The position numbers and the translations under genes are program-made. A model generated the notes under the pieces. It did not search any database. It was not told the DNA's origin and saw nothing but the letters and a program-made list of their open reading frames with translations. DNA of 64,000 bases from a virus: IMG/VR virus record IMGVR_UViG_3300025131_000006; one strand, 5' to 3'. Positions 381 to 62,712 of the stretch are shown here, one piece after another; the first letter of the stretch is position 1, and every line of letters begins with the position of its first letter.

Positions 381-1634
381 TCAACTGTCGGTGGAGTCTT
401 CCCCAACAAGATATGCCCACTCGCTCCTCTCTCTTCTTTCTTTTTCATGGCTCTCTAGCTCCGGGCGAGTTATGGCTTTTGTCAGTAGCTCGACGAGTTC
501 GTGCGACGATCCTCGTTGCATAACAGTGTCTTCCTCTATGTCTGTGGGGTGGCTCCAAATGTCATACAGAACATCGATGCTGCTTCCATCGCTGACATGC
601 GCAACACAGAATCCTCCGGCCACCAAGTGCATGACCGTCCACCACGTCTGCGAGATCCCCAAGGACTCCGGAGCGGGGATCGCCTCGCGAGTGATAGCAT
701 GGTGTGGGATCACTCCCGGAAATCCCCCTATTATTTTATCCAAGATAATCTCTGGTAATCCTGTGATGTGGCCCAAGATCTCTCGTTGCCATGTGGATCT
801 TGAGGCGATGTCGAAAGACACTTCCCTGAATCCGACGATTTGATAATGTTGGTTGGGGAAGGTGCGGTCTTTGGATTCGGGTGGATGATTGATGCCGTAC
901 TCTTTCCAACCCCAACAATGTGATTCTGTATCTCCTGCCGGGGGAGAGACGCAACCGTCACCAAAGGGTGTCAAGCTCCAGATCCAATCCCCGCGTGTGG
1001 GAATTCCCAACGTGCTGAATAATTGACACGCTTTCCTGCGTAGAGATCCCGGACCCCAACCTCTGGTCGTTCGGGCATAGTCGTACTCTCCTAAGCTCAT
1101 CATGTCCGATAGCCTTGGAGATGGCTTTTTCCCAAAGCCCATGGTTCTCGGAAGACTCAGCCCGTCTTCCGATGCTCCGGCGAATCCTGTTTCTATTCTT
1201 GAATCGGTGCCTGCTCCCATGATGGACAGCCCTGGTCCCGTGGACAAAGACCCCGCAACCAGAGTTCTCGTTGGTTCAGTGACTGAACCGGGAGTCTCCT
1301 CCTCTTCCTCATGGAGGGCTCTTTCGAGTAAAACCCGATCGACAATAGAGCTTATATCGGCCAACATCTTTGGCGTAAAGAGAGCGTCTATCTCGCTGTC
1401 GGGAACGTCTCTTTCTACAACCCCGGACTCCTCCGCGATGCGACGCCGGATCGTCCTGTGGATTGTGTGCAGCAAAGACACGGATTCGCCAACCGAGCTT
1501 ATTCCTAGAAAGGATTCGTCGCCGATAATGATTGTCTCGTCGAGGCTGATCCACCTTTCGGACAGAAGAGCCTCCACGAACTCTTGTCGTTTCTCGCTAT
1601 TGATCAATATCAACAATAGTTCTCGTGCGGTCAT
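381..1634 (-). CDS. hypothetical protein with sub-terminal S[DE]W tag (LESHEKERRERSEW + 11 aa)
   Basis: 452-codon open frame 381-1739; ATG at 1634 preferred as start. Confidence 0.75.
   Translation of the reverse strand: MTARELLLILINSEKRQEFVEALLSERWISLDETIIIGDESFLGISSVGESVSLLHTIHRTIRRRIAEESGVVERDVPDSEIDALFTPKMLADISSIVDRVLLERALHEEEEETPGSVTEPTRTLVAGSLSTGPGLSIMGAGTDSRIETGFAGASEDGLSLPRTMGFGKKPSPRLSDMMSLGEYDYARTTRGWGPGSLRRKACQLFSTLGIPTRGDWIWSLTPFGDGCVSPPAGDTESHCWGWKEYGINHPPESKDRTFPNQHYQIVGFREVSFDIASRSTWQREILGHITGLPEIILDKIIGGFPGVIPHHAITREAIPAPESLGISQTWWTVMHLVAGGFCVAHVSDGSSIDVLYDIWSHPTDIEEDTVMQRGSSHELVELLTKAITRPELESHEKERRERSEWAYLVGEDSTDS
1274..1288. repeat. palindrome GTTYAGTSACTRAAC copy 1 (intragenic)
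   Basis: GTTCAGTGACTGAAC. Confidence 0.9.
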
Positions 1635-1689
1635 GGCTCTACCTGTGCTTGTGGCATTCGGATCTTGGGAGGCTTGGGGGGCCAGGCTC

Positions 1690-2442
1690 TCACCACTCGG
1701 ATCGGGACCGGCGTTCGGCAGCGGCTGCTGCCAGAGCAAGATTCGTCACAGATCCCGACTTCCAAGAGCTAGCGATGGACCTATCCACGAATTCATCGCT
1801 CGCCAATCCTTGGTGGACAGCATACTCCCACAGGTGACTCAACTCCACAGAAACAAACTCCCATGGAGATAGCGTCCGGGTCTCCGAAAATCCGTCTGCT
1901 CTTAAAGGGACCATCGCGATCCCCATTCGATACGGGGCCAATAGTATCTGTGCGTACCCCAATAAGGTGTGTGCTTGGCTCTGCTTTGCGAATCTGATAA
2001 GAAACGCATTTGTCAGGCTGTGATGGTCCAAAGGAAATGGGATCGTGTCCCAAGAGGTCTCTTCTGGGTATGGCCGAAGACTTCCCGCGTGTCTGGGTTC
2101 CATGTTGAATATGTTTCGTAACTCGGCGGAAGCGGTGTCTTGCAGCACTTCGGGAGTCCCGTAGTTGCATATTCCCACCATGTGTGCGACCGGGTCTCGA
2201 TATGGGTCACTGTGACTTCTCCGGAGACCCCGTATGCACAGAACCGCTTTCTTTGTCAAGGAAACGTGTCTGTGGCGAATAAAAATGTCCTCTGTCGCCG
2301 CTTCGAGAGCATCTTTCGCCTTGGTGTTGTGGCGCAAGTAGGGAGCTTCAAGTGCAACCAATCCAGGTGGTGGCGTTAGCTTGCTGTCGTACCACTCGGC
2401 GTATGGATCGGGGGTGACAGCTACATCCGCTGTGCTTATCAT
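1690..2442 (-). CDS. hypothetical protein with C-terminal tag LAAAAAERRSRSEW*
   Basis: ORF; ATGA overlap with the upstream stop, GGAG RBS. Confidence 0.75.
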   Translation of the reverse strand: MISTADVAVTPDPYAEWYDSKLTPPPGLVALEAPYLRHNTKAKDALEAATEDIFIRHRHVSLTKKAVLCIRGLRRSHSDPYRDPVAHMVGICNYGTPEVLQDTASAELRNIFNMEPRHAGSLRPYPEETSWDTIPFPLDHHSLTNAFLIRFAKQSQAHTLLGYAQILLAPYRMGIAMVPLRADGFSETRTLSPWEFVSVELSHLWEYAVHQGLASDEFVDRSIASSWKSGSVTNLALAAAAAERRSRSEW

Positions 2443-3431
2443 GACATGCTCCAATCGCTATTGGTCTTCCGGCGGGCCTCTGCTGCCTCCAAGACCGTTG
2501 CTTTCTTGACCTCTGGCTTCGACGGCAATGTCTCTGTGAATGTCTCTGCGGGCTCCTCTGGGGAGCCCATGACGCTACCTAAGACCGCTAGTCGCTCTTC
2601 TTTGATCTTGCTGTCGGGCACGTACTTCTCTAACCACACGGTCGAGTCACTGTGGGGCAGTGGACGCAGATAAAAGAACGGGTCATGTGCCAAGAACCGA
2701 ATGCTATGAATGTCAATGTCCGGATTTATACGAAAGGCTGTTGAGACTCCTCCGGTCAGCAAGCTCGATGCGATGTACATGCCCAAAGACAAATTCACAG
2801 GTTCTCCGCCCTCTCCACCGCTCCGTCGCAACCTGATGTAGTCGTCGAGAACCACCAACTTGATCCGGTGAGTTTGAGGCAAGAAAGACCACCCGCGTGC
2901 CATGATGTTGGCGATCAGGTATTCGATCTCTCTATCCGTTGCAATGTACAAGCTTCGGAGTGCTGCTTTGAATTTATCTTCTTGCTCTGCGAGGCTGCAT
3001 CCTGTCGGGAGGGAGGTGATCACAATATTCGAGTGATGAATATCCCTGTGGGCCTTGCGGCGATAGACCTCTTTCTCTGATCGTGTCGAGCCGGGAAGAG
3101 GAAGCAGGAACATGTCACCCGGATCTTTTGCGTAAGACGCCTCCAAAGGAGAGAGTTTCCCAGTTGACACGAGCATGCCATCGGACTTCCAAGACTCCCA
3201 TGCCTCTCGGACCTCCTCGATGACTTTTGGGTCCAACAGCCGGGCTTCGTCTATCAGAGCCGGAGCCGTGACACCAGGAGCAACCGCTCTACAGTCGGAG
3301 CACATCCACGTGTACGCACTGATAAGCTCTCGCAAGGTCTCCGTGTGTGCGGGAGGCAGATTCACTCCAACTTGACCCAACTCGCCACTACAGCACCCGC
3401 AATGTACGTTGACAAAGGCTTCGAAGAACAT
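2439..3431 (-). CDS. hypothetical protein, N-terminal Cys (Zn) motifs, sub-terminal tag LEAAEARRKTNSDW+SMS*
   Basis: 330-aa ORF with CGCC and CSDC motifs. Confidence 0.75.
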   Translation of the reverse strand: MFFEAFVNVHCGCCSGELGQVGVNLPPAHTETLRELISAYTWMCSDCRAVAPGVTAPALIDEARLLDPKVIEEVREAWESWKSDGMLVSTGKLSPLEASYAKDPGDMFLLPLPGSTRSEKEVYRRKAHRDIHHSNIVITSLPTGCSLAEQEDKFKAALRSLYIATDREIEYLIANIMARGWSFLPQTHRIKLVVLDDYIRLRRSGGEGGEPVNLSLGMYIASSLLTGGVSTAFRINPDIDIHSIRFLAHDPFFYLRPLPHSDSTVWLEKYVPDSKIKEERLAVLGSVMGSPEEPAETFTETLPSKPEVKKATVLEAAEARRKTNSDWSMS

Positions 3432-3641: not shown

Positions 3642-4025
3642 TCAAATTCTTTCGCGGATCTTCCTTTCCGCATGACCGATTTCGTTGCATAAGTCTCGGT
3701 TGAGGCGTTTCTGTCGAGGGTTCCGGGAGTACTTGAGCAGAGTCTCTGTGTATCGGTCTAAGTCGATGCCATCGTTCAAAAGATCGACGACTTGTTTTAT
3801 CCGCGATCCGGAGCCAAGGAGCAAGACAAGCTCCACATAGCAGAACATGGCCCAACCCTCTTCGGCATCTTTTTCGGATTTTTTGGGGTCGTCCGGGGTG
3901 TGCACGACCAACAGTGTACGAGCCGCACGAGTGGCACTTCCTTTGCTTACATGGAACTCTTCGATGTTGTGGTTTCGAGCCTCCTCTGTGTCGAGGAGAG
4001 GCGATCGCAGTCGATATAAGTTCAT
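3642..4025 (-). CDS. hypothetical protein; frame continues past the TGA to 3516, ending PAEIERDRRRRSVW*
   Basis: ATG at 4025 with CAGGAG RBS; downstream in-frame codons translated by hand. Confidence 0.65.
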   Translation of the reverse strand: MNLYRLRSPLLDTEEARNHNIEEFHVSKGSATRAARTLLVVHTPDDPKKSEKDAEEGWAMFCYVELVLLLGSGSRIKQVVDLLNDGIDLDRYTETLLKYSRNPRQKRLNRDLCNEIGHAERKIRERI

Positions 4026-4045: not shown

Positions 4046-4060
4046 GTTCAGTGACTGAAC
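4046..4060. repeat. palindrome copy 2
   Basis: GTTCAGTGACTGAAC, just 5' of the RBS of the gene starting at 4025. Confidence 0.9.
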
Positions 4061-4115: not shown

Positions 4116-5678
4116 TTAGACCTTCCCCGAACTCCCGGTCTTGTGGGGCTTTCCCCCGACATGGGCGTCTTCTGCGGAGATCGTGGTGGAGGTGCTGTCA
4201 GTGTCCACTGCAAGATCGACCGTGTCCGTCACGGGATCGGCTACAGGAGGTGTTCCGGGCACACGAGAGACCTTTTCGGTCGCCGGAATGGCCACGTGGT
4301 CTTCCACGATAGACACCATCCCCATTAGCGACCGGACTGCCAATTGGACTTCGGCAGTGTTGTGCTCGGCAGGCAGGTTCTCAAGGGCAGTACACACCGT
4401 GGACACATCGACACCCAAAGCCATCGCGTCGTCGCCTCGGAAAAACACCCCCGGCCAATCGTCGCCAAAGCGAACAGGTCCGGTCTCGATGCGTTCTCCG
4501 ATCGGACCCGGCACCGAGCAGATTCCGTATAACCCATCCCACTCCGGGGAGAAGTACTCGTTCCAATCTCTCTCATCGTGATATTCGCGGAGATAGGCTT
4601 TTCGCTCTTTATCCAACTCTTCGGTGAGGCGACGCCTGCGATTCAATGAGATGCGGTGAATGACGCCCATGACCAACCGAGCGGATTCGTCGATGTCTTG
4701 GAGGGCGTCATTGAGTCCGCTCTCTTCGGAGAGCCGGAGGTCTCTCTCTCGCAAAGACAAGGGGAACTCTTCCAAGTGCTCCGCGAGGCCCTCTTCCTCA
4801 TACCGTCGAGCTTCGATGTACTCCGACCACGAGATCTCGCCGTTCTGAACTCTGTCGTACATCGAGGCAGCGGCTTGTGTTTGCCGGAAAGGACTCTGGG
4901 TGGCGTCGGCTGCTCGCGGCGTAGAGGGCTGTCTCCCTCTGGCAGGTTGGGACGCAGGGAATCCAAACAGGGAGGTCTGTCGAGGTGGTCCAGACTTCTT
5001 TCCACCGGAGCGTCCTTGATTGACACCCGGAGGCGTCATGGAACTCCACGGGTCCACCGGATCAGTAGACATGTCCGACCGTCGAGTACTGTACCCGCCC
5101 TGACGACCTCCTCCGAATGACGATCGACTGCGGCTTCCGCCGGGGGAACTGTGCGAGTTGGCTCCGGTGCGACCACCCGATCGGTGCCACCTTTCGTCCT
5201 CCGGGATCGTGCGACCACCATTGACGCCACCATCGCTACTCGAAGAACGCGACCCCGACGACGAAGCACGAGGCCACTCTCGGTCGCCATTGTCATCGAA
5301 CTCAGGCAGATCTTCCAAGCCGTCGTATTCGCTGTCGATCTCTTCGGCGATAGATTCCTCTTCTGTGATCTCGCCAAGGGCGATCTTCTCGGCCAACTCG
5401 TCCGCCTCTCGAAGCAGCTTCTCGACCGACTGACGCTTGAAACTGTGCCGGTGTATGGCCACAGAGTCTTCCAGAAACAAAGCTTGCTCCAAGCCCTCTC
5501 GAACCTCCTCCACGTCGTATGGTCCCAAGTCCGATCCGCCAAAGCGAACAAACCACACTTTCGTGGGGTCTCCCTTGGGGATATTGCCCTTCTTGGTGCG
5601 AGCCGGGCTCTTAGATCGAGTCGCCTCTCTCTCTCGTCTCCGATCGCCCTTTGTCTGCATCTTTCTTTTCTTCGTCAT
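4116..5678 (-). CDS. GYF_2 (DUF4339)-like domain protein with long Gly/Ser/Arg-rich disordered region
   Basis: WFVRFGGSDLGPYDVEEVREGL matches the GYF_2 pattern W-Y/F...G..GP; ATG at 5678 with GGAGAG RBS. Confidence 0.65.
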   Translation of the reverse strand: MTKKRKMQTKGDRRREREATRSKSPARTKKGNIPKGDPTKVWFVRFGGSDLGPYDVEEVREGLEQALFLEDSVAIHRHSFKRQSVEKLLREADELAEKIALGEITEEESIAEEIDSEYDGLEDLPEFDDNGDREWPRASSSGSRSSSSDGGVNGGRTIPEDERWHRSGGRTGANSHSSPGGSRSRSSFGGGRQGGYSTRRSDMSTDPVDPWSSMTPPGVNQGRSGGKKSGPPRQTSLFGFPASQPARGRQPSTPRAADATQSPFRQTQAAASMYDRVQNGEISWSEYIEARRYEEEGLAEHLEEFPLSLRERDLRLSEESGLNDALQDIDESARLVMGVIHRISLNRRRRLTEELDKERKAYLREYHDERDWNEYFSPEWDGLYGICSVPGPIGERIETGPVRFGDDWPGVFFRGDDAMALGVDVSTVCTALENLPAEHNTAEVQLAVRSLMGMVSIVEDHVAIPATEKVSRVPGTPPVADPVTDTVDLAVDTDSTSTTISAEDAHVGGKPHKTGSSGKV

Positions 5679-5874
5679 TTTTCTCTCCGTTTGGCAGCAA
5701 CGTAATCGCCTCCACAGATCTGTGGTTTTTAAAGACTGTCGCGAGCGGCGCCGCATGCCTTGTCCAATCTGGAACCAAGTAAATATAGACTGACATGTTC
5801 GCTATTTGAACATCGGCGGAGCACTTAAGTGGCACTTTTTCGCGTCGCGAAGCACTTCACCACAATCACCACAA

Positions 5875-7371: not shown

Positions 7372-7386
7372 GTTCAGTCACTGAAC
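7372..7386. repeat. palindrome copy 3
   Basis: GTTCAGTCACTGAAC, intergenic. Confidence 0.9.
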
Positions 7387-12668: not shown

Positions 12669-12683
12669 GTTCAGTGACTAAAC
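12669..12683. repeat. palindrome copy 4
   Basis: GTTCAGTGACTAAAC, overlaps a stop codon. Confidence 0.9.
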
Positions 12684-13697: not shown

Positions 13698-13712
13698 GTT
13701 TAGTCACTGAAC
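13698..13712. repeat. palindrome copy 5
   Basis: GTTTAGTCACTGAAC, intergenic. Confidence 0.9.
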
Positions 13713-15828: not shown

Positions 15829-15843
15829 GTTTAGTCACTAAAC
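15829..15843. repeat. palindrome copy 6
   Basis: GTTTAGTCACTAAAC in an AT-rich gap. Confidence 0.9.
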
Positions 15844-18882: not shown

Positions 18883-18897
18883 GTTCAGTCACTGAAC
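18883..18897. repeat. palindrome copy 7
   Basis: GTTCAGTCACTGAAC. Confidence 0.9.
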
Positions 18898-20436: not shown

Positions 20437-20451
20437 GTTTAGTGGTTAAAC
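20437..20451. repeat. palindrome copy 8 (2 mismatches)
   Basis: GTTTAGTGGTTAAAC upstream of the methyltransferase. Confidence 0.6.
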
Positions 20452-21194: not shown

Positions 21195-21209
21195 GTTCAG
21201 TCACTAAAC
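21195..21209. repeat. palindrome copy 9
   Basis: GTTCAGTCACTAAAC. Confidence 0.9.
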
Positions 21210-23702: not shown

Positions 23703-23717
23703 GTTCAGTCACTGAAC
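23703..23717. repeat. palindrome copy 10
   Basis: GTTCAGTCACTGAAC. Confidence 0.9.
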
Positions 23718-27082: not shown

Positions 27083-27097
27083 GTTCAGTCACTGAAC
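27083..27097. repeat. palindrome copy 11
   Basis: GTTCAGTCACTGAAC in a 30-bp intergenic gap. Confidence 0.9.
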
Positions 27098-28981: not shown

Positions 28982-28996
28982 GTTCAGTGACTGAAC
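28982..28996. repeat. palindrome copy 12
   Basis: GTTCAGTGACTGAAC. Confidence 0.9.
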
Positions 28997-30558: not shown

Positions 30559-30573
30559 GTTCAGTGACTGAAC
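30559..30573. repeat. palindrome copy 13
   Basis: GTTCAGTGACTGAAC. Confidence 0.9.
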
Positions 30574-36053: not shown

Positions 36054-36769
36054 GCGGGGTGAGAGACTTGTTCAAGGTGGCTTTGCCTGTGAAGCTCGCC
36101 AGGAAAGAGATCAAGAGAGAGGTTAGAGGTCTCAATTTGGGACGTGGCCGCAGGAAGAAGGAGAAGAGAGCCACCAGGACGGAGATGATTCGCAGGACAC
36201 ACGAGGGTCGTATTCTGGTGCCAGATCGTCGAGATCGAGAGGCACGGATGGAGGCGGCTCGTGTAGCCCAAGCTTTCGCAGAGAAGCACGCCAGGTACTT
36301 CGGCAGTCGCCAATGCGATTGGCAGAGGATGATGGAGAATCCCGGTGCGGTGGGGTGCTTCTCTCGTGCTGCCGCATATGCGTCCGAGTTGACTTGTTCG
36401 GCTTCGGATTTTGTGGAGGCACAGTTTTGGTATTTTGATAAATACGTGGGCCAGGTTCCCGACATAAAGAATTTGGCGGCACCAGATGCTGTCTCCCGGT
36501 ATAGTATTTGGAAGGAGTCTAGAGAGTCGGGTGAGGCGCCGGATGCGACGGTTTATCCGGCAGTGGGAGGGAGGGTCGCAAAATTAACAGATGACGAAAT
36601 GCGGGGCTATGAGGAGTCTTCCTTGCGTCGAATGGTCTCTCGATGGGGTTCGGAAGATAAAGTGTGGGAGTTGTTTGGACAGGAGGACGATGTTTTCTCT
36701 TTGGCTTTTCGGGAGAGCCGGGGGTCTTGGCAGCGTATGTACGGAACAGGAGACCTTGAAAAAGTTTAG
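36050..36769 (+). CDS. hypothetical protein in the replication cluster
   Basis: ATGA-coupled 239-aa ORF. Confidence 0.7.
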   Translation: MSGVRDLFKVALPVKLARKEIKREVRGLNLGRGRRKKEKRATRTEMIRRTHEGRILVPDRRDREARMEAARVAQAFAEKHARYFGSRQCDWQRMMENPGAVGCFSRAAAYASELTCSASDFVEAQFWYFDKYVGQVPDIKNLAAPDAVSRYSIWKESRESGEAPDATVYPAVGGRVAKLTDDEMRGYEESSLRRMVSRWGSEDKVWELFGQEDDVFSLAFRESRGSWQRMYGTGDLEKV

Positions 36770-36778
36770 TCACTGAAC
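36764..36778. repeat. palindrome copy 14
   Basis: GTTTAGTCACTGAAC, overlaps a TAG stop. Confidence 0.9.
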
Positions 36779-39765: not shown

Positions 39766-39784
39766 TTTTTCAAGGGAGAGTCGC

Positions 39785-40296: not shown

Positions 40297-40311
40297 GTTC
40301 AGTGACTGAAC
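40297..40311. repeat. palindrome copy 15
   Basis: GTTCAGTGACTGAAC. Confidence 0.9.
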
Positions 40312-43041: not shown

Positions 43042-43056
43042 ATTTAGTCACTAAAC
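43042..43056. repeat. palindrome copy 16 (1 mismatch)
   Basis: ATTTAGTCACTAAAC. Confidence 0.75.
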
Positions 43057-45255: not shown

Positions 45256-45918
45256 ATGAACAGAAATTGGCACTACAATGATTTCCTGAAAAATTACGAA
45301 GGCTTTCTGCACAACCAGGCGAAGATTCTCGCGACTTGCCCCGGTGTCGATCTCGATGATGCCGCACAAGATGTTAGGATGTTTGCGTGGGAGGCCGTGA
45401 CACACGAACGTTTCAACAGTTGGTCTGAGTCTCCGTCGGCTTGGATCTTTCAGCGGGTCGTGTGGGGTGTGCAGCGAAAGATCTCTGTGTATCGTCGATC
45501 CTATCTGGAGGTGCCTGCGAGTGCTTCACTGCAAAATAGGTGGTGTGTTTCTGAGTTCGGGTCGTGGAGGGTGCGGTGGTTGGACAATTTGGGGGAGTCG
45601 GATGTTACTTATTCGGATGTGTTCAGGGGTCGATTCTATGACATAGAGAATCAAGTGGAGGCTCGTATCGCGTTGGAGCGGATTGAGAGATTCGCTGAGA
45701 CATCGCTTCCGGAAGGGCAGCGGAGACCTATTTTGGCAGTGTTGCAACGCACGGAGGAGGTCATTGAACACTCGCAGAAGTCGAAAGGGGGTCGTGCGGG
45801 TGTGGCGACTTACGAGGTTGCGTCGGGTCCAAACCTGTCCACTTTCTTGAACCACCCGTGGGCCGCAAAAATGATGGAGCGGGCACAGAACAAAATCATC
45901 GAAGAGTTCAGTGACTAA
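45256..45918 (+). CDS. RNA polymerase sigma-70-like factor (region 2-like)
   Basis: DLDDAAQDVRMFAWEAV...F...SAWIFQRV resembles sigma region 2. Confidence 0.55.
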   Translation: MNRNWHYNDFLKNYEGFLHNQAKILATCPGVDLDDAAQDVRMFAWEAVTHERFNSWSESPSAWIFQRVVWGVQRKISVYRRSYLEVPASASLQNRWCVSEFGSWRVRWLDNLGESDVTYSDVFRGRFYDIENQVEARIALERIERFAETSLPEGQRRPILAVLQRTEEVIEHSQKSKGGRAGVATYEVASGPNLSTFLNHPWAAKMMERAQNKIIEEFSD

Positions 45919-45920
45919 AC
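45906..45920. repeat. palindrome copy 17
   Basis: GTTCAGTGACTAAAC, overlaps a TAA stop. Confidence 0.9.
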
Positions 45921-49253: not shown

Positions 49254-49284
49254 GGGGAGTGGCCATGTGTCACTCCCCTTTTTT
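49254..49284 (+). terminator. Rho-independent terminator
   Basis: GGGGAGTG...CACTCCCC stem followed by TTTTTT. Confidence 0.75.
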
Positions 49285-50189: not shown

Positions 50190-50204
50190 GTTCAGTTACT
50201 AAAC
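50190..50204. repeat. palindrome copy 18
   Basis: GTTCAGTTACTAAAC, directly after the recA stop. Confidence 0.85.
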
Positions 50205-50226: not shown

Positions 50227-53200
50227 ATGAGCAACCGAGTTCTCGTTTTTTCCGACTTGCAAGCACACACGCATCATGCGTACGCAAGGTCATTGCCGAA
50301 TGGCCGGAATACCCGACTCAAGGCAGCGACGGACTGCTTGAAGTATATCATCGACTTTGCAAGGGAGAACCGGATTCGGGATGTGGTCTTCTGCGGGGAT
50401 CTCTTCGAGACCAAGAATCGAATCCCGATGGTTGTTCTCCAAGAAGTGTGCGAATTGATCGTTGATTCGGTGGTTCACGGGTTGCGTTGGTTTATGATCC
50501 CAGGGAACCATGACTATGCAGTGCGTAACGGAGAGGTCCACGCCTTGGCGTTATTGCGTGGGCACGAGGACATTTACATTTTTGATGAGGATTGGTCGCG
50601 TGTTCCATTTCATAACTTTGGGGCATCCTTGGACAGTTCCATGTCCGCACGAGGGGGCGTGCCGACCTTGATCCACACGGTCAAATATGCAGAGAAATTA
50701 CCAGTAGAGGTGTTCGATGTGGAGCCGGACGAGGGCTCTCTGCGGGTATTGTTGGCTCATGGTTATGTGGAGGGCATGTGCGACTTCCCCCACGACTTCC
50801 CGGAAGACGAGATGGCCCAAGACGGGGAGTGGATACGAAGAGCGTGGCTCCGAGGCTTCGACGCGGCTCTGGTGGGTCACTACCACAAGCCAATGGTTGA
50901 GAACATTCACGGGTGCCAGGTTATTGTTCCGGGTTGCCCGTATCAAGAGAAGTCCGACGCTATGGGCCAAGAGCGAGGGTTCTTTGTTTGGGACTTGGAC
51001 AGTCGGGAGGCAACGAAGCATGTGATCCCGGAGAGCGTGGCACCGAGATTTGTGAAAGTGTCCATTGGGGCCGATGGTGTTGTGGAAGAGGAGGTCGCGT
51101 CCAACAGCATTGTATTATTGGAGCCTGCGGTAAGAGGGGTGCCTGCGGATGTGATTAAGCAAGCTCGTCAGAGCCTGATGGCTTCGGGTGCCTCGTACGT
51201 AGAGCCCCTGACGTTGCCACGCACTCCGGTCGTCCGGGTGGAGCGTCCAGCGATCGAGGTCGGCACCCGAAGTACACCGTTGAGTGTGTTAAAGCGTGTC
51301 CTTCGTTCGGATGCTATCGACCTGCGGGGGTGTTCTCTGCGTGAGTTGGAGCGAAAGGCTTCGGCTATTATCGCGGAGCATGGGCTCTTGCGAAAAGGGG
51401 CAAAGGGTGGATCTCCTGTGGTGGAGATGTATTTGAGTGCGCGAGATGCGTTTGCATTCGGTCGGGTTGATGTGGAGTTGACCGACCAGGGCTTGCTTGG
51501 AGTGGGGGGTGTCAACATGGAGACTTCTCAGGCGAGCAGCAATGGTGCGGGGAAGTCCACGCTTCCGGATGTGGTGTCGTTAGTCTTGTTTGGGAAGTCT
51601 CTGCGAAATGTGCGGGCAGATGAAACGATCCGCCGGGGAGCACGATCGTATCGAGGCATGATTCGGTTTGCGACATCCGATGGCAAGCGATACGAGATCT
51701 TTCGTTGCAGAAAAGACAAAGAGTTCGGGGGCGGGCTGTTCTTCCGGAAGGGATGGGGTGAGTACGACTTGGAGGAATTTGAACTTCCAGGAAAAGACGT
51801 CGATATGCGCGGAGGAGAGGGGAAGGAGACGCAGGATCATATCTCAGCGTCGCTCAGTATGGGGTTCGGGTTGTTCCGTGCCTTAGTTCTGTTGGGAGAA
51901 GGTGGAGACTTTCGGTTTGCAGCGTTGGGAGATTCGGCAAAAAAAGATGTCTTGTCAGATATTCTGGGGGTGTCGTTCTATGATGATCTCGCCAAAAACG
52001 CTCGGTCTCTTGCGAACACTCTGAGCGACGAGCAGGACAAATTGGAAGCAGAAGCAGGAGTACTGCTTTCGGAGAAGGAGGACGCAAACCGCGAGTGGCA
52101 TGTCGTGCAAGAGTCATTGGTGCGTTGGGAGAGAAAGCACCTGTATGAGATCCAAGGTGCCGAGGAGACTTTGGTTGCCGCACAAAAGGTTTTGCGACTC
52201 GCAGACGAAAAAATCATTGCACCGGCAGCGGGAAGTTCAGTGACTGAACTGAAAGATACGCGGGTTCGTGTTCTGGAATTCCGGGAATTGCTCGAACAAG
52301 CCAGAGAGGACCATGCAGGTCTCTTGGAGGAAGCGAACGAGAGTGCTCTTGCTTCTCAATCCAAGGTTGTCGGCCTGTTGTCGGATGTTCGATCGGTCGA
52401 GGCCCAATTGAAAGATCGGCGTGACTTGATCGCTCGTGGGAGGTGCGGAGAGTGCGGGCAAATCGTGACGGAAGATGTCTGCGAAGGCAAACTCTCCGAG
52501 TTAGAGGGACGCTTGGCAGAGTTGCAGGAAGATCTCCATGTTGCCAAAGGTCGAAAGTCCAGTTTGTCCGCGATCTACAACGATAGGCTTGTCTCCAGCA
52601 CAGGGGATACCTCAGAATTGGAAGAGACCTTGGGAGGGTTTCGGGCGAGAGTCGAGGAATTGGAGGCCGACGGTTTGTTGATCGCACAGGCGAAAGACCG
52701 GCGTGCTCAAGCTGCTCGCTTGCACGGGATACGCAGAGATGAGGTCGAGCGTTTGAAAGCCGAGGCGAATCCACACACAGGAGAGAGCGAAAGGCTCGTA
52801 GGGAGATCGGCCCGGTTGGTGACCGAGCGGGACATAAAGTTGCGAGAGCAGGCGTCGAAGCACTTGGACATGCTGCACTACAAAGTCCTCGCGGATGCGT
52901 TCGGACCCAAAGGGGCTCGATCAATGCTGTTTGACGAACTGATGCCGCAGTTGAACGATCGTTTGGAGTTATACTCCGACCTTTTTTGCGGGGGGTATAT
53001 TCGAATATCGGTGCAGTCGCAGTCTGAAACTGCCAGGGGAAAGGTGCAAGAGAAGATTGGGCTTGTGGTGGACTTCCCATCCGGTTCGTGTTCTTATGGC
53101 TCATGCAGTGCAGGAGAGAAGAGGCGAGTGGATTTGCCTGTTCTGTTTGCTCTCCAAGACGTCGCTGCTGCTTACGGTGTGGGGTTGGGCTTCTGCTTTT

Positions 53201-53421
53201 TGGACGAAGCGTTCGAGAATGTGGACGCAGCGGGCAAGGTTGGACTGATGGACCTGCTCTCCGAGGTGTCGGGTCGATCGCACACTTCCACGGTCTTTGT
53301 CGTCACTCACGATGAGGACTTGTTGGGATTGTTCGATCCGGTGATGTGGTGTTATCGTGTAGGCGGGCGAACGAGCTTGTTTTTCGGAACATCGACTGCC
53401 CCAACAGAAGTGCCTGCTTGA
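50227..53421 (+). CDS. Mre11(SbcD)-Rad50(SbcC) fusion nuclease/ATPase
   Basis: SDLQ, GDLF, PGNHD, AHG, GHYH; NGAGKS, coiled coil, CGEC Zn hook, CSAGE signature, LDEAFENVD, VVTH. Confidence 0.93.
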   Translation: MSNRVLVFSDLQAHTHHAYARSLPNGRNTRLKAATDCLKYIIDFARENRIRDVVFCGDLFETKNRIPMVVLQEVCELIVDSVVHGLRWFMIPGNHDYAVRNGEVHALALLRGHEDIYIFDEDWSRVPFHNFGASLDSSMSARGGVPTLIHTVKYAEKLPVEVFDVEPDEGSLRVLLAHGYVEGMCDFPHDFPEDEMAQDGEWIRRAWLRGFDAALVGHYHKPMVENIHGCQVIVPGCPYQEKSDAMGQERGFFVWDLDSREATKHVIPESVAPRFVKVSIGADGVVEEEVASNSIVLLEPAVRGVPADVIKQARQSLMASGASYVEPLTLPRTPVVRVERPAIEVGTRSTPLSVLKRVLRSDAIDLRGCSLRELERKASAIIAEHGLLRKGAKGGSPVVEMYLSARDAFAFGRVDVELTDQGLLGVGGVNMETSQASSNGAGKSTLPDVVSLVLFGKSLRNVRADETIRRGARSYRGMIRFATSDGKRYEIFRCRKDKEFGGGLFFRKGWGEYDLEEFELPGKDVDMRGGEGKETQDHISASLSMGFGLFRALVLLGEGGDFRFAALGDSAKKDVLSDILGVSFYDDLAKNARSLANTLSDEQDKLEAEAGVLLSEKEDANREWHVVQESLVRWERKHLYEIQGAEETLVAAQKVLRLADEKIIAPAAGSSVTELKDTRVRVLEFRELLEQAREDHAGLLEEANESALASQSKVVGLLSDVRSVEAQLKDRRDLIARGRCGECGQIVTEDVCEGKLSELEGRLAELQEDLHVAKGRKSSLSAIYNDRLVSSTGDTSELEETLGGFRARVEELEADGLLIAQAKDRRAQAARLHGIRRDEVERLKAEANPHTGESERLVGRSARLVTERDIKLREQASKHLDMLHYKVLADAFGPKGARSMLFDELMPQLNDRLELYSDLFCGGYIRISVQSQSETARGKVQEKIGLVVDFPSGSCSYGSCSAGEKRRVDLPVLFALQDVAAAYGVGLGFCFLDEAFENVDAAGKVGLMDLLSEVSGRSHTSTVFVVTHDEDLLGLFDPVMWCYRVGGRTSLFFGTSTAPTEVPA
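52235..52249. repeat. palindrome copy 19 (intragenic)
   Basis: GTTCAGTGACTGAAC within the Rad50 coiled-coil coding region. Confidence 0.9.
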
Positions 53422-54694: not shown

Positions 54695-56416
54695 TTGATG
54701 AGTGACGCACGTAAAATTATTGCACCTACCCCGGATATTATCGCAGGAGCACGGGATGTCTCCGAGCGTTGGTATCTGAACTTGGCTCTTTGGTCACAGT
54801 ATTCGGGGCTGCGTGTAGACGGTCACCCTTTCTCGTTCGATCGACATCTTTATTTGCTGCCTATCTACATGGATCGCAGCTTGGATATTGTGGTGATGAA
54901 GTCGGCACAGATGGGGCTGACCATTGCGGAGTTGCTTCGCTGTTTTCACCAAGCCCTCCACCACGAGGCATGGGGTTATCCGTACCCAATTAAGATTGGT
55001 TTTTACTTCCCGGACAAGTCGGGTGTTTTGGATGTTGTTCGAGATCGCGTCGAGCCATTGTTGGCGTCGAGCCCTGAGTTACAACCCTACTCGACGCAAC
55101 CGACCAAGCTCTTGAAGCGAATCGGGCCAAGTTCTGTGTACTTTCGGTATATGGCCGGTAAATCGACAAAGGATTCGATTCCGCTGATGTCCTTGTTCTT
55201 CGATGAGGTTCGACTGATGTCGCCTCGTGATGTCTTTCAGGCATACGAACGTGTCTCTGCCGCCGAGATTAAGTACAAGTTTCACGCTTCAACAGCGGGC
55301 GTGCCCGACACCGATATTCATGGTCTCTTCTTGGAGTCAGACCAAAAGTGGTTCTACACGAGATGCACGCGCTGCCAGTACGAGCAGTGCCTGCCTCTGG
55401 AGTTTCCGGACTGTATCGCCGAGCACACGATCGGGACAGAGAAAGGGAAGATATACTACATCTGTAAGAGTTGTCGGCTCCCGCTCGAAGATAATCAACG
55501 GGGTCGGTATATTCCACATGGAGATCCGCTTCACGAGGTCTCCGGCTACCAATTCAGCCAGTTGGTTTCCAAGAAGATTACGGCTCGCGAGATCTGGAGA
55601 ATGTTCCAGACAACGGACAATATCCCGGAGTTCTGGAACGCAAAGCTTGGAATGCCCTATGTGGACGAGGAGAACAGGCCCGTGCACATGGGTGGCTTAG
55701 TTGATAACGAATACCAGAACATCAGCACATTGGCCGAGTGGGGGCAGTACACAGGGCAGACGTATATGGGCGTAGACCAGATGATGAATCTGAACTACGT
55801 GACGATTATCGAGGTGCGAGGAGAAGAGAGGCGTCTTGTCTGGTTCGAGATCATCGAAGACCGAGATCCTTTTGCCCGACTGTACCAACTTATGGAAGAT
55901 TACAGTGTATCTGTGTGTGTGTGTGACAGTGAGCCCAATACAAATGACGCTTTAAAGTTCGCCAGGGCATTCAATCGCCGGGTGTTTCTCGCGAAGTACG
56001 GGTTGTATCCGGACTTAGTCAGGTGGGATGACCATTGGCGGCCCAAGCGGGCTCACAAAAAGGCTGCACAGGAAGAGTTTTACCAATATCGGGTGTTTCT
56101 GGACAAGTACCAAAGTATCGGTCGAACCTTGGAGTGGATTCGTCGGGGTCGAGTGCAGTGGCCGAATCCGGAGAGGCTTGTACAAGAAGCTCTTCCTTTG
56201 GGAGGTGGCGCCAGGATGCCGTATCCTGTGATGAAAACACACGCCTTTCACCATTATTCCAGCCCTATCCGAATCAAGATCATGGAAAACGAGGAAGAGC
56301 AGAGATACAGGTTCGCGTGGAAGTTCACGATGGGAGATCCGCATGCTTTGGATTCTTTGAACTACGCGATCACGGCTTCCTTGAGGCGCCGTTCGATCGC
56401 GGGTTGGTGGTCGTAA
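54695..56416 (+). CDS. terL: terminase large subunit (lambda GpA-like)
   Basis: KSAQMGLT Walker A, FFDEV Walker B, STAG coupling motif, Zn ribbon, MGVDQ and HALDS nuclease residues. Confidence 0.88.
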   Translation: MMSDARKIIAPTPDIIAGARDVSERWYLNLALWSQYSGLRVDGHPFSFDRHLYLLPIYMDRSLDIVVMKSAQMGLTIAELLRCFHQALHHEAWGYPYPIKIGFYFPDKSGVLDVVRDRVEPLLASSPELQPYSTQPTKLLKRIGPSSVYFRYMAGKSTKDSIPLMSLFFDEVRLMSPRDVFQAYERVSAAEIKYKFHASTAGVPDTDIHGLFLESDQKWFYTRCTRCQYEQCLPLEFPDCIAEHTIGTEKGKIYYICKSCRLPLEDNQRGRYIPHGDPLHEVSGYQFSQLVSKKITAREIWRMFQTTDNIPEFWNAKLGMPYVDEENRPVHMGGLVDNEYQNISTLAEWGQYTGQTYMGVDQMMNLNYVTIIEVRGEERRLVWFEIIEDRDPFARLYQLMEDYSVSVCVCDSEPNTNDALKFARAFNRRVFLAKYGLYPDLVRWDDHWRPKRAHKKAAQEEFYQYRVFLDKYQSIGRTLEWIRRGRVQWPNPERLVQEALPLGGGARMPYPVMKTHAFHHYSSPIRIKIMENEEEQRYRFAWKFTMGDPHALDSLNYAITASLRRRSIAGWWS

Positions 56417-56418
56417 AA

Positions 56419-56433
56419 GTTCAGTGACTGAAC
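56419..56433. repeat. palindrome copy 20
   Basis: GTTCAGTGACTGAAC after the terminase stop. Confidence 0.9.
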
Positions 56434-56532
56434 GCGGGAGTTGGGTTCTTGCTATTATCTGGTTCGGCTTATTACACGGCTCAAGCATTACTGACGCGCC
56501 GTATTTTACGCATCCTTTGCTGCGGGCACCCC

Positions 56533-56784
56533 ATGTTTCAAGAGGACATCTTTTCGCACCTTCCGCATGCGGAGACGACGGATTCGACATCGAAGCCTTT
56601 TGGGTTTAGCGAAATTCATCTATTCTGTGGCTCTTGTGGTCACGAGATTCGATTGGATTGTCTGATCTCAGGCACAGCAGACCAGGCGTGGCCTTACGTT
56701 GAAGCTGATCATTTTGCGAACGCCGTGTCTCGCAAGCGAAACAAGAAAGACAGAGAGGAAGGAGAAGCCGATGCCGATTTATGA
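56533..56784 (+). CDS. hypothetical protein
   Basis: Short ORF with CGSC. Confidence 0.4.
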   Translation: MFQEDIFSHLPHAETTDSTSKPFGFSEIHLFCGSCGHEIRLDCLISGTADQAWPYVEADHFANAVSRKRNKKDREEGEADADL

Positions 56785-57064
56785 GAGGTCTCCCGTGGGA
56801 CTCACCGGAGCAGAGTACAATTCGTTCAACGAAGAGACCGGAGAGTCTGTGTTTATCGCGGTGCAGCCGGAGGACGTCTTGGGGCACCTTGCTCGCGGAT
56901 GCACGATCGCTGAGATCCAGAAATCGATTCAAGCTCCCCGCGAGGTCATTGAGCATGTGATCATGCAGATTCCTGTGATGGTTGCATGGAGAGAGCAGCA
57001 GGCCGAGCAAGCGTCGAATGTTCAAAGGTTGCCGGAAGTTTCTTCTGTGCCAATGGGGGAGTAA
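56771..57064 (+). CDS. hypothetical protein
   Basis: AGGAG RBS. Confidence 0.55.
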   Translation: MPIYERSPVGLTGAEYNSFNEETGESVFIAVQPEDVLGHLARGCTIAEIQKSIQAPREVIEHVIMQIPVMVAWREQQAEQASNVQRLPEVSSVPMGE

Positions 57065-59568: not shown

Positions 59569-59689
59569 ATGGAGAATCGACGAAACATGTCTAGATTGTT
59601 TGTTGTTTTGCTTATCTTGTTGTTGTGCTACTACATAGCAGAGGCAATTCACATTCATCGTATGGTGCTGAATGCACCAGGAGAAGGTT

Positions 59690-60217
59690 ATGGACGGATC
59701 GAGAATCAAAGACACCCTGACGGAAGTTCCTCCTATCGTTGTAAGTAACGAGGTAAGTGACGAGGACGCAGCAGCGATCGATAAGCTGAGAGAGGCAAAG
59801 ACTCTTCGAGAGAATCTGCTTGGTTTGTCTTCGGATTGGGCATGGGATTATTTTCCCGATCTAGCGGACCTCCCTGAGAATTGGAGGCCGATCGACCAAT
59901 GCGAAGGCGGGTTCCGAGCGGTGGTCTTGAATAAGAAGGGACTCCCCCATCTTGCTGTAATCGCCAGTTGTGGTGTCGAGCAGGACGGAAATAAGTGGAT
60001 GCACTTGTCGGTGTCGCGACGCAAACATCTCCCGACATGGGGTGAACTCGTGATGGTGCGAGACGCTATTATTGGAACAGATTATTTCGCGTATCAGGTG
60101 ATCCCCCCTCGGTCTGAACACGTTGACATCGCGGATGTCCTTCACATGTGGATCTTGCTCGACGATGATAAAGGCCAAGTCTTCCCCGACTTCACCGAAG
60201 GCACAGGTCTTATCTGA
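59690..60217 (+). CDS. conserved phage hypothetical protein (W.HLSVSR...PTW.EL..V family)
   Basis: VIAS...W.HLSVSR...PTWGEL...PP.SEHV....LHMW. Confidence 0.75.
   Translation: MDGSRIKDTLTEVPPIVVSNEVSDEDAAAIDKLREAKTLRENLLGLSSDWAWDYFPDLADLPENWRPIDQCEGGFRAVVLNKKGLPHLAVIASCGVEQDGNKWMHLSVSRRKHLPTWGELVMVRDAIIGTDYFAYQVIPPRSEHVDIADVLHMWILLDDDKGQVFPDFTEGTGLI
59998..60064. repeat. 67-bp exact repeat, inverted copy of 8604-8670
   Basis: Base-by-base identity. Confidence 0.95.
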
Positions 60218-60219
60218 AA

Positions 60220-60234
60220 GTTCAGTGACTGAAC
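60220..60234. repeat. palindrome copy 21
   Basis: GTTCAGTGACTGAAC between convergent genes. Confidence 0.9.
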
Positions 60235-60276: not shown

Positions 60277-62145
60277 TCAGATCTCGCACACTCCACCAGC
60301 ACAAGCCTGTGTTTGACGGACTTCCGTGCCATCCTCCCACTCTTTGACGTCCGATACTTTCATTTTGTGGACGTTTGCGGCCAGTCTCTCCCATTCTTCG
60401 TCGGGTATTTGTTGGTACACTAGCTGCTCGAAGTCGGTGTCGTCTTGTTGCGGGAAGACACTGATCGCCGTGTAGCTGTCGCGGTGTTCCCACATCCACT
60501 CGCCGACATCGTCCCACTCGTTTTGCCCCACATAGACGGTGGCAGACACATTGTTTTGGTTGTCGCCTTCGCGGTGGCCGGGTTCGATCCAATCTTGGTG
60601 GAACCGACGGATTCGCTCCAACAGGTCGATGGGGGATTCGGTGCTGCGGCTACTGCCGCTGCCGCTGTGGACCAAGGGGATATTGATGAATGCCTCTCTG
60701 TCAGGGACATACACGGAGTCTTCCACGAGTTCTGGTGCGACTGCCATGGCATGTTCATAGATTGCACTGCCCTTATTCAGGGTCAGGCGTCGAATGTACC
60801 GACCGTGACGCTCCGGGCTATGGATGCCACATGGGACGCCTCCCAATCGCAAGGAGGAGGTTCCTTCGGGCTTCAGCAAGGTTGTGCGCTTGGCCGGATT
60901 GATTCCCAAGATTTTGGCCATGCGTGCGTTCTCCTCCAGCACGACGCGGGCGGCAGCTTGCAGATCCAATCTTTCGACGTTGCCTGCGGTGATGCCCGTC
61001 ATGGAGATGCCAATGAGGGCGTCTTCGTCGGTGCGCTCTTTCCATTCAGGTCGCAGCAGGTGAAAGTCGGTGTAGGTGGCCTGGATCGTGGCAATCCGTG
61101 CAGCCATTCGTGCTCTGTGTTCCAGATCAGATTGACATTCAATGGTGGATGCGTTTATCGTGGCAAGGTTACAAAACGTATAGAAACGGAGGCTTGCCTC
61201 AAGGCATGGATTAAATAACCAATCCAGGTTATGGGTCCAAAAGATGGCGGGCTCGCCGTATTTGGATTGAGCGATAATCTCCCAGTATTTCCAGAAGGAG
61301 GACTCGTCGTGCTCCGAGCGGAGGAGGGCAGCATCTATATTGGCCATGCGGCGCCAAGGGTGGGTTTCGGTCCAATTGCCTGCTTTGTAGTGGAGCATGC
61401 GAGGATCGTCGTGGGAGAAGATGCAAACATAAGAGGAACGGCGAACACCACCAGACAGGACCGCTTCCGCGAAGTGACACATGATGTCGGAGGCTTCATC
61501 GGTTTCCAACTGTTGGCCCGGTTTCTTGTCGGCCAGGATGCTCTCGACTCGTTGGAGGGCGTCGAGTAGGGGGTTGGGTCCGGGGGCTCGACCTCCTGTT
61601 GTGCTCAGGAAAGATCCTGCCGGTCGGACGTCGGAGGGATCGAATCGAGGCCTGGGGTCGCCGCAGAAGTAAGCGCAGAGGAGGGCGTCGAGCGCTTCGG
61701 CCCATCCTTCGATGGTGTCCACGATCAGGTATCTGCGATCGAGTCGTGGTCTTTGGATAGGGGGGAGTTGGGCGACGTGTTGGCGTTGAACGGAGTATCC
61801 GACACCGCATCCGCTCAGGAGGAGAAAAAATGCCTCAGTGAAGGCTCGCGGGTGGATAATGGCAGTCGCCGAGCAGTTGTACAAGCGGGCCGGATTCTTG
61901 ATGATCGGGTCGCCGCCGTACTGAAGAGAGCGCATAGAGGGGAGAACTTTATCGTCGTAGACCAATTGAAACGCTTCGCGGATCGGATCGGCCAAATGGG
62001 GCAGCTTCCGAATGTGCATGGTTTCGGTGCGAGATACATTCTCTCTAGGGGTCTCCCTTCGATGCAGTTCCTTCAAGTATTTTGCGTACTTGTCGAAGTG
62101 GATTAGTTGTTTGAGTAAGGTGCGGGCATTAGCGTCTTGACTCAT
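60277..62145 (-). CDS. nrdJ: class II (B12-dependent) ribonucleotide reductase
   Basis: LYNCS, GGVRRS, NPCLE, FCNL, KPEGT, C-terminal CAGGVC; no small-subunit gene nearby. Confidence 0.92.
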   Translation of the reverse strand: MSQDANARTLLKQLIHFDKYAKYLKELHRRETPRENVSRTETMHIRKLPHLADPIREAFQLVYDDKVLPSMRSLQYGGDPIIKNPARLYNCSATAIIHPRAFTEAFFLLLSGCGVGYSVQRQHVAQLPPIQRPRLDRRYLIVDTIEGWAEALDALLCAYFCGDPRPRFDPSDVRPAGSFLSTTGGRAPGPNPLLDALQRVESILADKKPGQQLETDEASDIMCHFAEAVLSGGVRRSSYVCIFSHDDPRMLHYKAGNWTETHPWRRMANIDAALLRSEHDESSFWKYWEIIAQSKYGEPAIFWTHNLDWLFNPCLEASLRFYTFCNLATINASTIECQSDLEHRARMAARIATIQATYTDFHLLRPEWKERTDEDALIGISMTGITAGNVERLDLQAAARVVLEENARMAKILGINPAKRTTLLKPEGTSSLRLGGVPCGIHSPERHGRYIRRLTLNKGSAIYEHAMAVAPELVEDSVYVPDREAFINIPLVHSGSGSSRSTESPIDLLERIRRFHQDWIEPGHREGDNQNNVSATVYVGQNEWDDVGEWMWEHRDSYTAISVFPQQDDTDFEQLVYQQIPDEEWERLAANVHKMKVSDVKEWEDGTEVRQTQACAGGVCEI

Positions 62146-62424
62146 GCACTTTCTCCGTTGAATTGTCTTGTGATTTTAAGAGGATAAGGTGTGTTTCATG
62201 CGAGCCGAATCTCTGGGAGAAGAACATGAACCACAGACCTACCATGCTATCCAATTTTATTGGGTCATGTCAATTTGTTTTGGGTGGGTTGAGGCTCCTT
62301 GTGAACACTCGAATCCCTTGACAATCCTGCGTTATTGAGGAATAAAAAAAACTGGTAGAAGCCCCCGTGTATAGACTTCTGTTCGGAGTTGCATAGACTT
62401 CGTGAATCCAAAGAGAGAACTCAT

Positions 62425-62703
62425 ATGCCGCTGTATTTGAATGGGAAAGAAGTTTCTGGACACGCTCTTGACGTTGAGGGGTTTGAGCCAGGGGTAAACG
62501 ATCCTGCTGAGTTGCACTTGGTGGATGGGTTCAAAGACAAGGATCTCGTCTATGTCGAGTCTCTGGATCGTCTCTTTCGGTACGAGGACACATCGACGGC
62601 ATCGGATGACGGAGGTGGTGTCCTCGAAGAGGAGGAGGAAATGAGCGAACTCGAAAGACTTCGTCTCCGTGTTGCAGAGCTTGAGTCCGGTGATAAAGTT
62701 TAG
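62425..62703 (+). CDS. hypothetical acidic protein
   Basis: ORF; stop codon overlaps a palindrome copy. Confidence 0.55.
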   Translation: MPLYLNGKEVSGHALDVEGFEPGVNDPAELHLVDGFKDKDLVYVESLDRLFRYEDTSTASDDGGGVLEEEEEMSELERLRLRVAELESGDKV

Positions 62704-62712
62704 CGACTGAAC
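62698..62712. repeat. palindrome copy 22 (1 mismatch)
   Basis: GTTTAGCGACTGAAC, overlaps a TAG stop. Confidence 0.8.

Follow-up and report, generated by a model that had tools for sequence, protein, structure and literature searches.

An evenly spaced palindrome in a large novel tailed phage and its lineage-specific versions: putative docking sites for a dimeric protein

Introduction

What might a phage do with the same short palindrome placed, almost letter for letter, all along its chromosome? The question is raised by a 64,000-nucleotide stretch of IMG/VR record IMGVR_UViG_3300025131_000006 (hereafter the window), which is part of a large novel tailed phage and in which 22 copies of a 15-bp palindrome are found. 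The copies are symmetric, regularly spaced and located mostly between genes, related phages carry the word with a change at one mirrored position, and some of the positions are conserved between lineages. We slightly favor an explanation in which the palindromes are putative double-stranded DNA docking sites for a cognate dimeric protein, laid out as a lattice whose spacing is controlled, and in which the protein would most probably be encoded by the phage itself.

Number, sequence and spacing of the palindromes

Exact matches to GTTYAGTSACTRAAC numbered 18 in the 64-kb window, against an expectation of 0.00 from 100 dinucleotide shuffles, and allowing one or two mismatches added the copies at 20437, 43042, 50190 and 62698, to give 22 copies against 0.27 expected. 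Every copy listed in an earlier reading of the DNA, made from its letters and open reading frames (ORFs) and here called the sequence-only reading, was recovered in this way. When scored against GTTCAGTNACTGAAC, 12 copies were perfect, 6 had one mismatch and 2 had two, and the most degenerate copies, 20437 and 43042, matched only the consensus with Y and R. The set is discrete: at three mismatches a single extra word appeared (38937), and it looked unrelated. Most of the variation consists of the transitions described in the sequence-only reading, C/T at position 4 and G/A at position 12, which affect one arm or both; the arms vary independently, with C..A combinations at 45906 and 50190. The motif widens by one flanking pair to A-N15-T, A being present at -1 in 16 of the 22 copies and T at +1 in 12, and no second conserved motif was found within 30 nt on either side of the 22 sites. 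Isolated arms seemed at first sight strongly depleted relative to base composition, but this mostly vanished under a Markov expectation because words containing TAG are generally rare; TTCAGT alone is still modestly low (4 copies, 10.9 expected), and we do not claim half-site avoidance.

The gaps between the 22 sites range from 758 to 6205 bp (mean 2925), with a coefficient of variation (CV) of 0.46. The comparison with random placement that the sequence-only reading had called for shows that this is regular, since uniform placement gives a CV near 0.96 (P=1.5e-4). A second null, in which 22 of 68 gene boundaries were sampled, gave a CV of 0.87 and was also exceeded (P=4.5e-4), so the regular spacing is not a mere by-product of intergenic siting.

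The sites, in window coordinates, are as follows.

Site 1, 1274..1288: GTTCAGTGACTGAAC, perfect; inside ORF 381-1739(-), where it is read S-V-T-E; the ORF has no family match
Site 2, 4046..4060: perfect; between ORF 4116-5756(-) and ORF 3642-4025(-), with AGGAG and ATG of the latter 20 nt past the site
Site 3, 7372..7386: perfect; intergenic, flanked by an A-run and TT
Site 4, 12669..12683: GTTCAGTGACTAAAC; A at position 12 in one arm
Site 5, 13698..13712: GTTTAGTCACTGAAC; AGGAGG and then ATG 18 nt on, on the - strand
Site 6, 15829..15843: GTTTAGTCACTAAAC; T/A form in both arms
Site 7, 18883..18897: perfect; intergenic, upstream of ORF 18117-18833(-)
Site 8, 20437..20451: GTTTAGTGGTTAAAC, degenerate, two mismatches; between ORF 20446-21120(-) and the C5 DNA methylase gene 19246-20436(-)
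Site 9, 21195..21209: GTTCAGTCACTAAAC; intergenic
Site 10, 23703..23717: perfect; inside the short, unsupported ORF 23647-23886(-)
Site 11, 27083..27097: perfect; 2 nt past the stop of ORF 27100-27957(-)
Site 12, 28982..28996: perfect; local gene calls uncertain, the 356-aa (amino acid) - strand ORF being probably spurious
Site 13, 30559..30573: perfect, preceded by an A-run; opens the rightward gene block, ~80 nt before a strong terminator (30638-30666)
Site 14, 36764..36778: GTTTAGTCACTGAAC; supplies the TAG stop of gene 36050-36769 (candidate helicase loader), which precedes dnaB
Site 15, 40297..40311: perfect; 2 nt past the stop of 39728-40294, where the primase module ends; in the relative, a site lies on the primase stop
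Site 16, 43042..43056: ATTTAGTCACTAAAC, one mismatch; between the CobS-like and CobT-like genes
Site 17, 45906..45920: GTTCAGTGACTAAAC; contains the TAA stop of the weakly sigma-like gene 45157-45918, with the next start 17 nt on
Site 18, 50190..50204: GTTCAGTTACTAAAC, T centre; directly past the recA/uvsX-like stop, with the SbcCD ATG 22 nt further on; position kept in the 144-kb relative
Site 19, 52235..52249: perfect; inside the SbcD-SbcC fusion gene 50227-53421, where it is read S-V-T-E
Site 20, 56419..56433: perfect; 2 nt past the terL stop; position kept in both relative lineages
Site 21, 60220..60234: perfect; between the convergent genes 59672-60217(+) and 60277-62145(-), the latter for ribonucleotide reductase
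Site 22, 62698..62712: GTTTAGCGACTGAAC, one mismatch; left arm TTTAGC, as in the KorB operator

Placement of the sites relative to genes

Gene calls are secure in the rightward block at 30-60 kb and unreliable at 12-30 kb. On a crude gene map (75% coding), 15 sites were fully intergenic, 4 overlapped a gene end and 3 lay inside calls, as expected from the sequence-only description of sites mostly in small intergenic gaps or at gene ends; that at least 19 of the 22 are not fully internal to genes has a P of 3e-9 on this map. Two perfect copies, 1274 and 52235, do lie inside long ORFs and are read there as SVTE, as had been described, and another one or two (23703, 28982) are covered by ORFs that are short or unsupported. 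Stop codons occur within the motif in two of three frames when the centre is G and in one of three when it is C; a G-centre copy on the coding strand can be read through only as SVTE. The tendency of sites to abut stops is therefore partly automatic, because the motif itself carries stop codons. With this proviso, the earlier claim that sites abut the stops of recA, terL and a sigma-like gene stands for the first two, while the sigma-like label of the third is sub-threshold.

In the rightward block, sites occupy minimal gaps, with only 37 nt between recA and sbcCD, and the stops of 36050-36769 and 45157-45918 fall inside sites. The usual layout is a stop, 0-20 nt, the site, 12-40 nt and a start, and many copies sit in short intergenic gaps throughout, a feature of the stoperator type. 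The orientation of the centre base followed no consistent rule relative to gene direction, the gene calls at 12-30 kb being too uncertain for this comparison. A promoter reading fails because there is no second motif, the 37-nt recA-sbcCD gap is too small, and sites occur inside genes and between convergent genes; the sequence-only reading had likewise argued against a promoter-specific operator.

The tight gaps between co-directional genes just before a ribosome-binding site, seen in the window and in the 144-kb relative (G34) and actinophage contig (G2) described below, would suit transcriptional punctuation, in which the palindromes would be operators or roadblocks ("stoperators") for a classical repressor, blocking read-through or gene blocks without action at a distance. 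We consider this unlikely, since the spacing is more regular than random choice among gene boundaries would produce, since intragenic and convergent-gene sites exist, and since all functional modules are covered alike. For the docking sites that we favor, placement could be understood if sites are kept outside coding sequence where possible, wedged between a stop and the next ribosome-binding site, and if an intragenic site is accepted only where a long gene would otherwise leave too large a gap. Such placement suggests a limited reach for the bound protein, ~1.5-3 kb to either side of a site.

Related phages carry other versions of the word

A terL search of JGI metagenomes returned only two uncultured phage lineages, with ~50% TerL identity to the window phage. 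The first is represented by G34 (IMG/VR 3300018080_000112), which is 144 kb long, 89% complete and syntenic with window positions 32-57 kb at ~28-53% protein identity. The 15-mer of the window is missing from G34, and its own word, GTTAGG-W-CCTAAC, occurs there in 28 perfect copies in 144 kb, with no copies of the reversed control and only two near-matches. These copies are again regularly spaced (CV 0.46, P below 5e-5 in both nulls) and, on a crude gene map (85% coding), 26 of the 28 are intergenic (P=1e-19), usually in the order stop, 0-20 nt, site, 12-40 nt and next start. Centre bases A and T are mixed within one long leftward gene block. In the second lineage (G35/L181), the word TTTAGA-N-TCTAAA is present in seven copies in 23 kb, set in an A-run/T-run context.

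The sister-lineage words, GTTAGGWCCTAAC and TTTAGANTCTAAA, can be aligned with that of the window on the dyad, as TTYAG-T-S-A-CTRAA (window), TTAG-G-W-C-CTAA (G34) and TTTAG-A-N-T-CTAAA (G35). The base next to the centre differs by lineage and is mirrored on both arms: T..A in the window, G..C in G34 and A..T in G35. Part of the layout is conserved as well. A site directly past recA is found in the window and G34, a site past terL in all three lineages, and a site at the end of the primase module in the window and G34; other sites are shifted by one gene between relatives. The recA, terL and primase-end sites persist at ~45% protein identity despite the changed word. Since positions are partly kept while the word differs, the array must be old, and all sites of a lineage changed in concert.

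The mirrored change also bears on whether the signal is read as DNA or as RNA. If each site were a small RNA hairpin for termination, RNA processing or a translational regulator, a DNA palindrome would give the same hairpin in either direction of transcription, and the position of sites just 5' of ribosome-binding sites, with a T-run after some copies (40297, 45906 and 7372 on the - strand) and an A-run before, would be understandable. The hairpins are weak (-4.3 kcal/mol for the window version, -1.1 for that of G34), however, and canonical GC-rich terminators exist elsewhere (30638, 45163, 49254). The secure rightward block has three asymmetric sites, and at two of them, 45906 and 50190, C would be mispaired with A in the stem. 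In addition, the positions -1 and +1 from the centre would sit in a minimal 3-nt hairpin loop, yet they stay complementary and covary across the three lineages, which points to a two-fold symmetric protein-DNA complex. An RNA signal is thus very improbable, and the earlier suggestion of a symmetric double-stranded DNA signal gains by the comparison. In such a complex, each arm, (G)TTYAG, would be contacted by one subunit of the dimer, and the base pair beside the centre would set lineage specificity, being T here, G and A in the relatives and C in the KorB operator of plasmid RK2. Each lineage may have re-tuned its ~30-60 sites together with the reader by one mirrored base-pair change beside the dyad centre.

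The persistence of positions under a changed word also argues against recent insertion of a mobile palindrome resembling repetitive extragenic palindromes or miniature inverted-repeat transposable elements. This possibility, and the kindred one of an enzyme target (for nicking or cutting, recombination or modification), would fit copies that are almost all perfect and thus stricter than usual operators, the C5 DNA methylase gene that adjoins site 8, the T5orf172/GIY-YIG-like protein encoded in the window, and the two deletions between repeats reported for Cluster O phages (PMC4351075). Together we give them little probability. Flanks are not conserved beyond one A/T pair, so nothing longer than 17 bp moved, and conservation covers 15-17 bp, less than the unit of 20-40 bp or more of such mobile palindromes. 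Double-strand breaks would result from a symmetric nick site, ~50 recombination sites would scramble the genome, and C5 methylases recognize 4-6 bp, not 15.

The same word in unrelated elements

The exact 15-mer of the window was also found in two contigs of one sample, IMG/VR 3300037193_000597 (G2), with 31-35 copies in 36 kb, and IMG/VR 3300037193_000179 (G3), with 9 copies in 26 kb. These contigs have 67-68% GC and together carry 44 copies in 62 kb, nearly one per small gene. They are taken to be actinophage because their portal protein is 38% identical to Arthrobacter-phage portals; those Arthrobacter phages have no TTYAG-N3-CTRAA word at all. Between genes, as called from GC content at third codon positions, lie 25 of 31 G2 sites, often in the order stop, site, ribosome-binding site, start. 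Extra isolated half-sites are present in G2/G3 besides the 15-mers.

A third element, C58, is a 32.6-kb plasmid-like or phage-plasmid contig (51% GC) of a 7.1-Mb metagenome-assembled genome (MAG; G001). It carries six copies, in the close pairs 7494/7564 and 21726/21821 and as two singles, and encodes a weak match to an actin-like (ParM-type) partition protein. No 15-mer occurs in the rest of this MAG, and none or one in each of 30 related genomes. In a species-wide scan for the 15-mer, all but one of the genomes listed had a single, chance-level copy, the multi-copy exception being contig C58. Searches for proteins shared between the window and G2/G3 or C58 (tblastn and blastp, down to E 0.3) gave noise only, with none at E<1e-3. 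The proteins that G34 and G2 have in common, a metallophosphoesterase and one with a SLOG domain, are not DNA binders.

A word that is abundant in an unrelated high-GC actinophage and in a plasmid-like contig, with no protein in common with the window at that threshold, and for which no reader gene was found in G34, could reflect a host protein: a regulator, nucleoid protein or defense sensor that is recruited, titrated or evaded, with the relatives' versions corresponding to different hosts. We judge this improbable, given that copies in the genomes listed and in the relatives of C58's MAG are chance-like or missing, that a GC content of 53% versus 67% argues against a common host, and that the Arthrobacter-phage relatives of G2/G3 do not have the motif. 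If only a few specificities are possible (four at -1, Y at -4), recurrence of a word in a distant lineage would not be very surprising, and a reader gene that was transferred, or a reader of cellular origin, would explain the shared word just as well.

Comparison with known systems

Palindromic words of 12-16 bp that are dispersed, read by dimers and used to mark or organize DNA, not to control a promoter, are known from chromosome organization and partition, as in ParB-parS, Noc-NBS, SlmA-SBS, MatP-matS and the dispersed SopB centromeres of the phage-plasmid N15. Those arrays are regional or few in number and are not known to be evenly spaced replicon-wide, and their readers are known. The analogy with stoperators and with ParB/parS-type arrays drawn in the sequence-only reading is apt in architecture.

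Closest in sequence is the operator OB of KorB from plasmid RK2, TTTAGCGGCTAAA (TTTAG-CSG-CTAAA), for which A/T-rich flanks are favored (PMC5577506). Its arm and 3-bp spacing equal those of the window motif, TTYAG-TSA-CTRAA, with an S centre and A/T flanks in both. OB-type arms TTTAG/CTAAA with a 3-bp spacer are thus present in the window, a resemblance of sequence only. Like the window sites, OB exists in many near-identical dispersed copies, some of them far from promoters. RK2 has 12 OB sites. The halves of the KorA operator, GTTTAGCTAAAC (PMC5577506), equal the outer six bases of the window motif, GTTTAG/CTAAAC. KorB is a ParB-family cytidine triphosphate (CTP) clamp, which is loaded at OB and silences promoters by sliding as far as 1.5 kb (PMC11790492); this range is about half of the mean gap in the window, a comparison that is an inference and not a measurement. 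The window phage differs from RK2 in that no KorB/ParB domain, KorA-type partner or second operator was found in the window or the 144-kb relative, and no KorAB-type second operator at a fixed distance is suggested by the 30-nt flanks, which hold no conserved motif. Nor is it a plasmid, but a large phage whose examined DNA gives no sign of lysogeny, and its sites, evenly spaced, lie mostly between genes and are not positioned relative to promoters.

Among phages, Cluster O mycobacteriophages have 17-bp repeats, TGTTCGGNNNCCGAACA, for which a dimeric protein has been proposed; most are not at promoters, and their function is unknown (PMC4351075). Our scan of Corndog found 35 near-perfect repeats in 70 kb. 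Their arms, GTTCGG-N3-CCGAAC, have five of six positions and the 3-bp spacing in common with GTTCAG-TSA-CTGAAC, in the same register, and the repeats likewise occur in many copies in short intergenic gaps of a phage that is not obviously temperate. In contrast to the mirrored centre of the window motif (T-S-A), that of Corndog is a non-palindromic AAA/TTT; its copies are concentrated towards one end of the genome and can be as little as 35 bp apart, whereas those of the window are regular; and about one third of them lie in genes, compared with 2-4 of 22 in window ORFs. No sign of relationship was seen between the window phage and Cluster O phages. Corndog encodes an orphan ParB-like protein, gp90 (ParB_N 27.7 bits, GQRR motif). 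Two of the 17-bp repeats, at 54274 and 56294, flank the gp91-gp90 operon.

The stoperators of Cluster A phages (L5) are 13-bp words, asymmetric and oriented with transcription, that are bound by the immunity repressor of a temperate phage (PMC4351075). They resemble the window sites in that dozens of copies of a short word lie in tight intergenic gaps near stop and start codons; stoperators are read by one phage protein, as is proposed for the window sites. This likeness of distribution (PMC4351075), together with the nearly one site per small gene in G2 (31 in 36 kb), is again what punctuation would lead one to expect. The window sites, however, are palindromic and evenly spaced, with no consistent orientation. 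Furthermore, no tyrosine integrase was found in G34, G2, G3, G35 or the window Pfam scan, and no integrase or repressor was seen in the window or repressor identified in the others, although no search was aimed at serine integrases or repressors.

Search for a protein that reads the site

The reader, by which we mean the candidate protein recognizing the 15-mer, was sought in the window by a Pfam scan of 95 ORFs of at least 95 aa, and none was found, either there or in the 144-kb relative. The two candidates of the sequence-only reading, a ribbon-helix-helix protein (11769-11960) and a helix-turn-helix (HTH) protein (21811-22206), are weak: the former scored 17 bits against a cut-off of 27 and the latter, as HTH_17, 26.4 bits against 27, and neither has a homolog in G34 or the other elements carrying the word. 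That reading as a whole is supported in part, in its symmetric DNA signal and regular spacing; its proposed readers have no comparative support. A small, acidic, HTH-looking protein encoded after terL in all three lineages (56699-57064) was also rejected, its putative recognition helix being acidic. Neither the relatives nor the scanned window ORFs gave a KORA-family match above cut-off, although no search was aimed at ParA as a partner. G34 encodes a 393-aa protein (55389-56570, - strand) that has two XRE-type HTH motifs in addition to sigma-70 region 4; this is the only notable multi-HTH protein there, and it has no counterpart in the window.

How a bound dimer would act can be suggested by analogy with KorB. 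A clamp of the ParB/KorB type would load at each site, slide, and cover or silence the chromosome, or organize it for replication or packaging. This is the leading candidate mechanism, though we advance it only tentatively. More broadly, and somewhat doubtfully, the phage may coat or partition its whole chromosome from an even grid of loading sites, as a kind of phage "chromatin" that silences, insulates or protects the genome; the protein loaded there could be a CTP clamp resembling ParB/KorB, or else a DNA tracker of a new, site-loaded kind.

Several observations weigh against these proposals. No ParB_N, KorB or KorA domain was detected by Pfam in the 95 window ORFs. In G34, 89% complete, no KorB match was obtained, and none to ParB_N even at E<=10; this absence of ParB_N is the main argument against a ParB/KorB clamp; the 23-kb fragment around terL of the other relative had neither domain. 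The sole ParB_N protein of the actinophage has neither the arginine motif (IIAGNHTW in its place) nor a recognizable HTH, and is for that reason a poor clamp candidate, and C58 has no ParB_N. The near-perfect identity of copies is stricter than in most operator arrays and would also suit an enzyme target. Finally, uncertain gene calls at 12-30 kb make the placement statistics there approximate.

Gene content and composition of the window

The following genes and signals were recognized.

19246-20436(-): C5 DNA methylase
32426-33373(+) and 40455-41060(+): unrelated proteins that share a C-terminal peptide, ...RRKSSDW
36050-36769(+): basic protein of 239 aa, preceding dnaB and conserved across the three lineages
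45157-45918: "sigma-like" protein; Sigma70_r2 match of 18.7 bits, below the cut-off of 24
49302-50189: recA/UvsX-like recombinase
50227-53421(+): SbcD and SbcC fused in one 1064-aa gene, PHROG-annotated
54695-56416: terL, with only ~30% identity to FelixO1-, SPO1- and Thermus-phage terminases
60277-62145(-): ribonucleotide reductase
Other genes: DnaB, primase, CobS-like, CobT-like, RusA, and a protein with a T5orf172/GIY-YIG-like domain
30638-30666, 45163-45188 and 49254-49278: strong canonical + strand terminators, with stems of 10-12 bp, 5-9 G-C pairs and a T-run after each

A megablast of 20 kb of the window against a phage collection gave no match. For the 36050-36769 protein, the sole named look-alike cluster in the ESM Atlas was the T4 gp59-type helicase loader (score 0.91), which is a lead only. 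SbcD and SbcC are separate or differently arranged pieces in the relatives.

The + strand is G-rich from ~8 kb to the end of the window whatever the direction of genes, and the skew is reversed before ~8 kb; leftward genes past ~8 kb, e.g., 19246-20436(-) and 60277-62145(-), have C-rich third codon positions. This is a strand asymmetry independent of transcription, and it makes composition-based gene calling unreliable here. The G-rich + strand leads to long spurious ORFs on the C-rich strand, such as 28161-29231(-); the 356-aa ORF across site 28982 translates to a low-complexity sequence rich in H, T, P and S and is probably spurious.

Significance

Phages with dispersed dyad repeats have been known since the Cluster O work (2015). 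To these the present clade adds regular spacing over more than 100 kb, three versions of a word that differ at one mirrored position, and positions that outlast a change of word; neither the regular spacing nor the lineage-specific mirrored change was found described in the literature searched. These features together predict a co-evolving reader, with a specificity residue that should be findable by comparison. Should there be no phage reader, the occurrence of the same word in an unrelated actinophage would suggest a cellular factor common to both. A KorB-like sliding clamp as the reader, on the other hand, would extend clamp-based long-range control of DNA from plasmids to whole phage chromosomes, and the Cluster O repeats would gain a mechanism.

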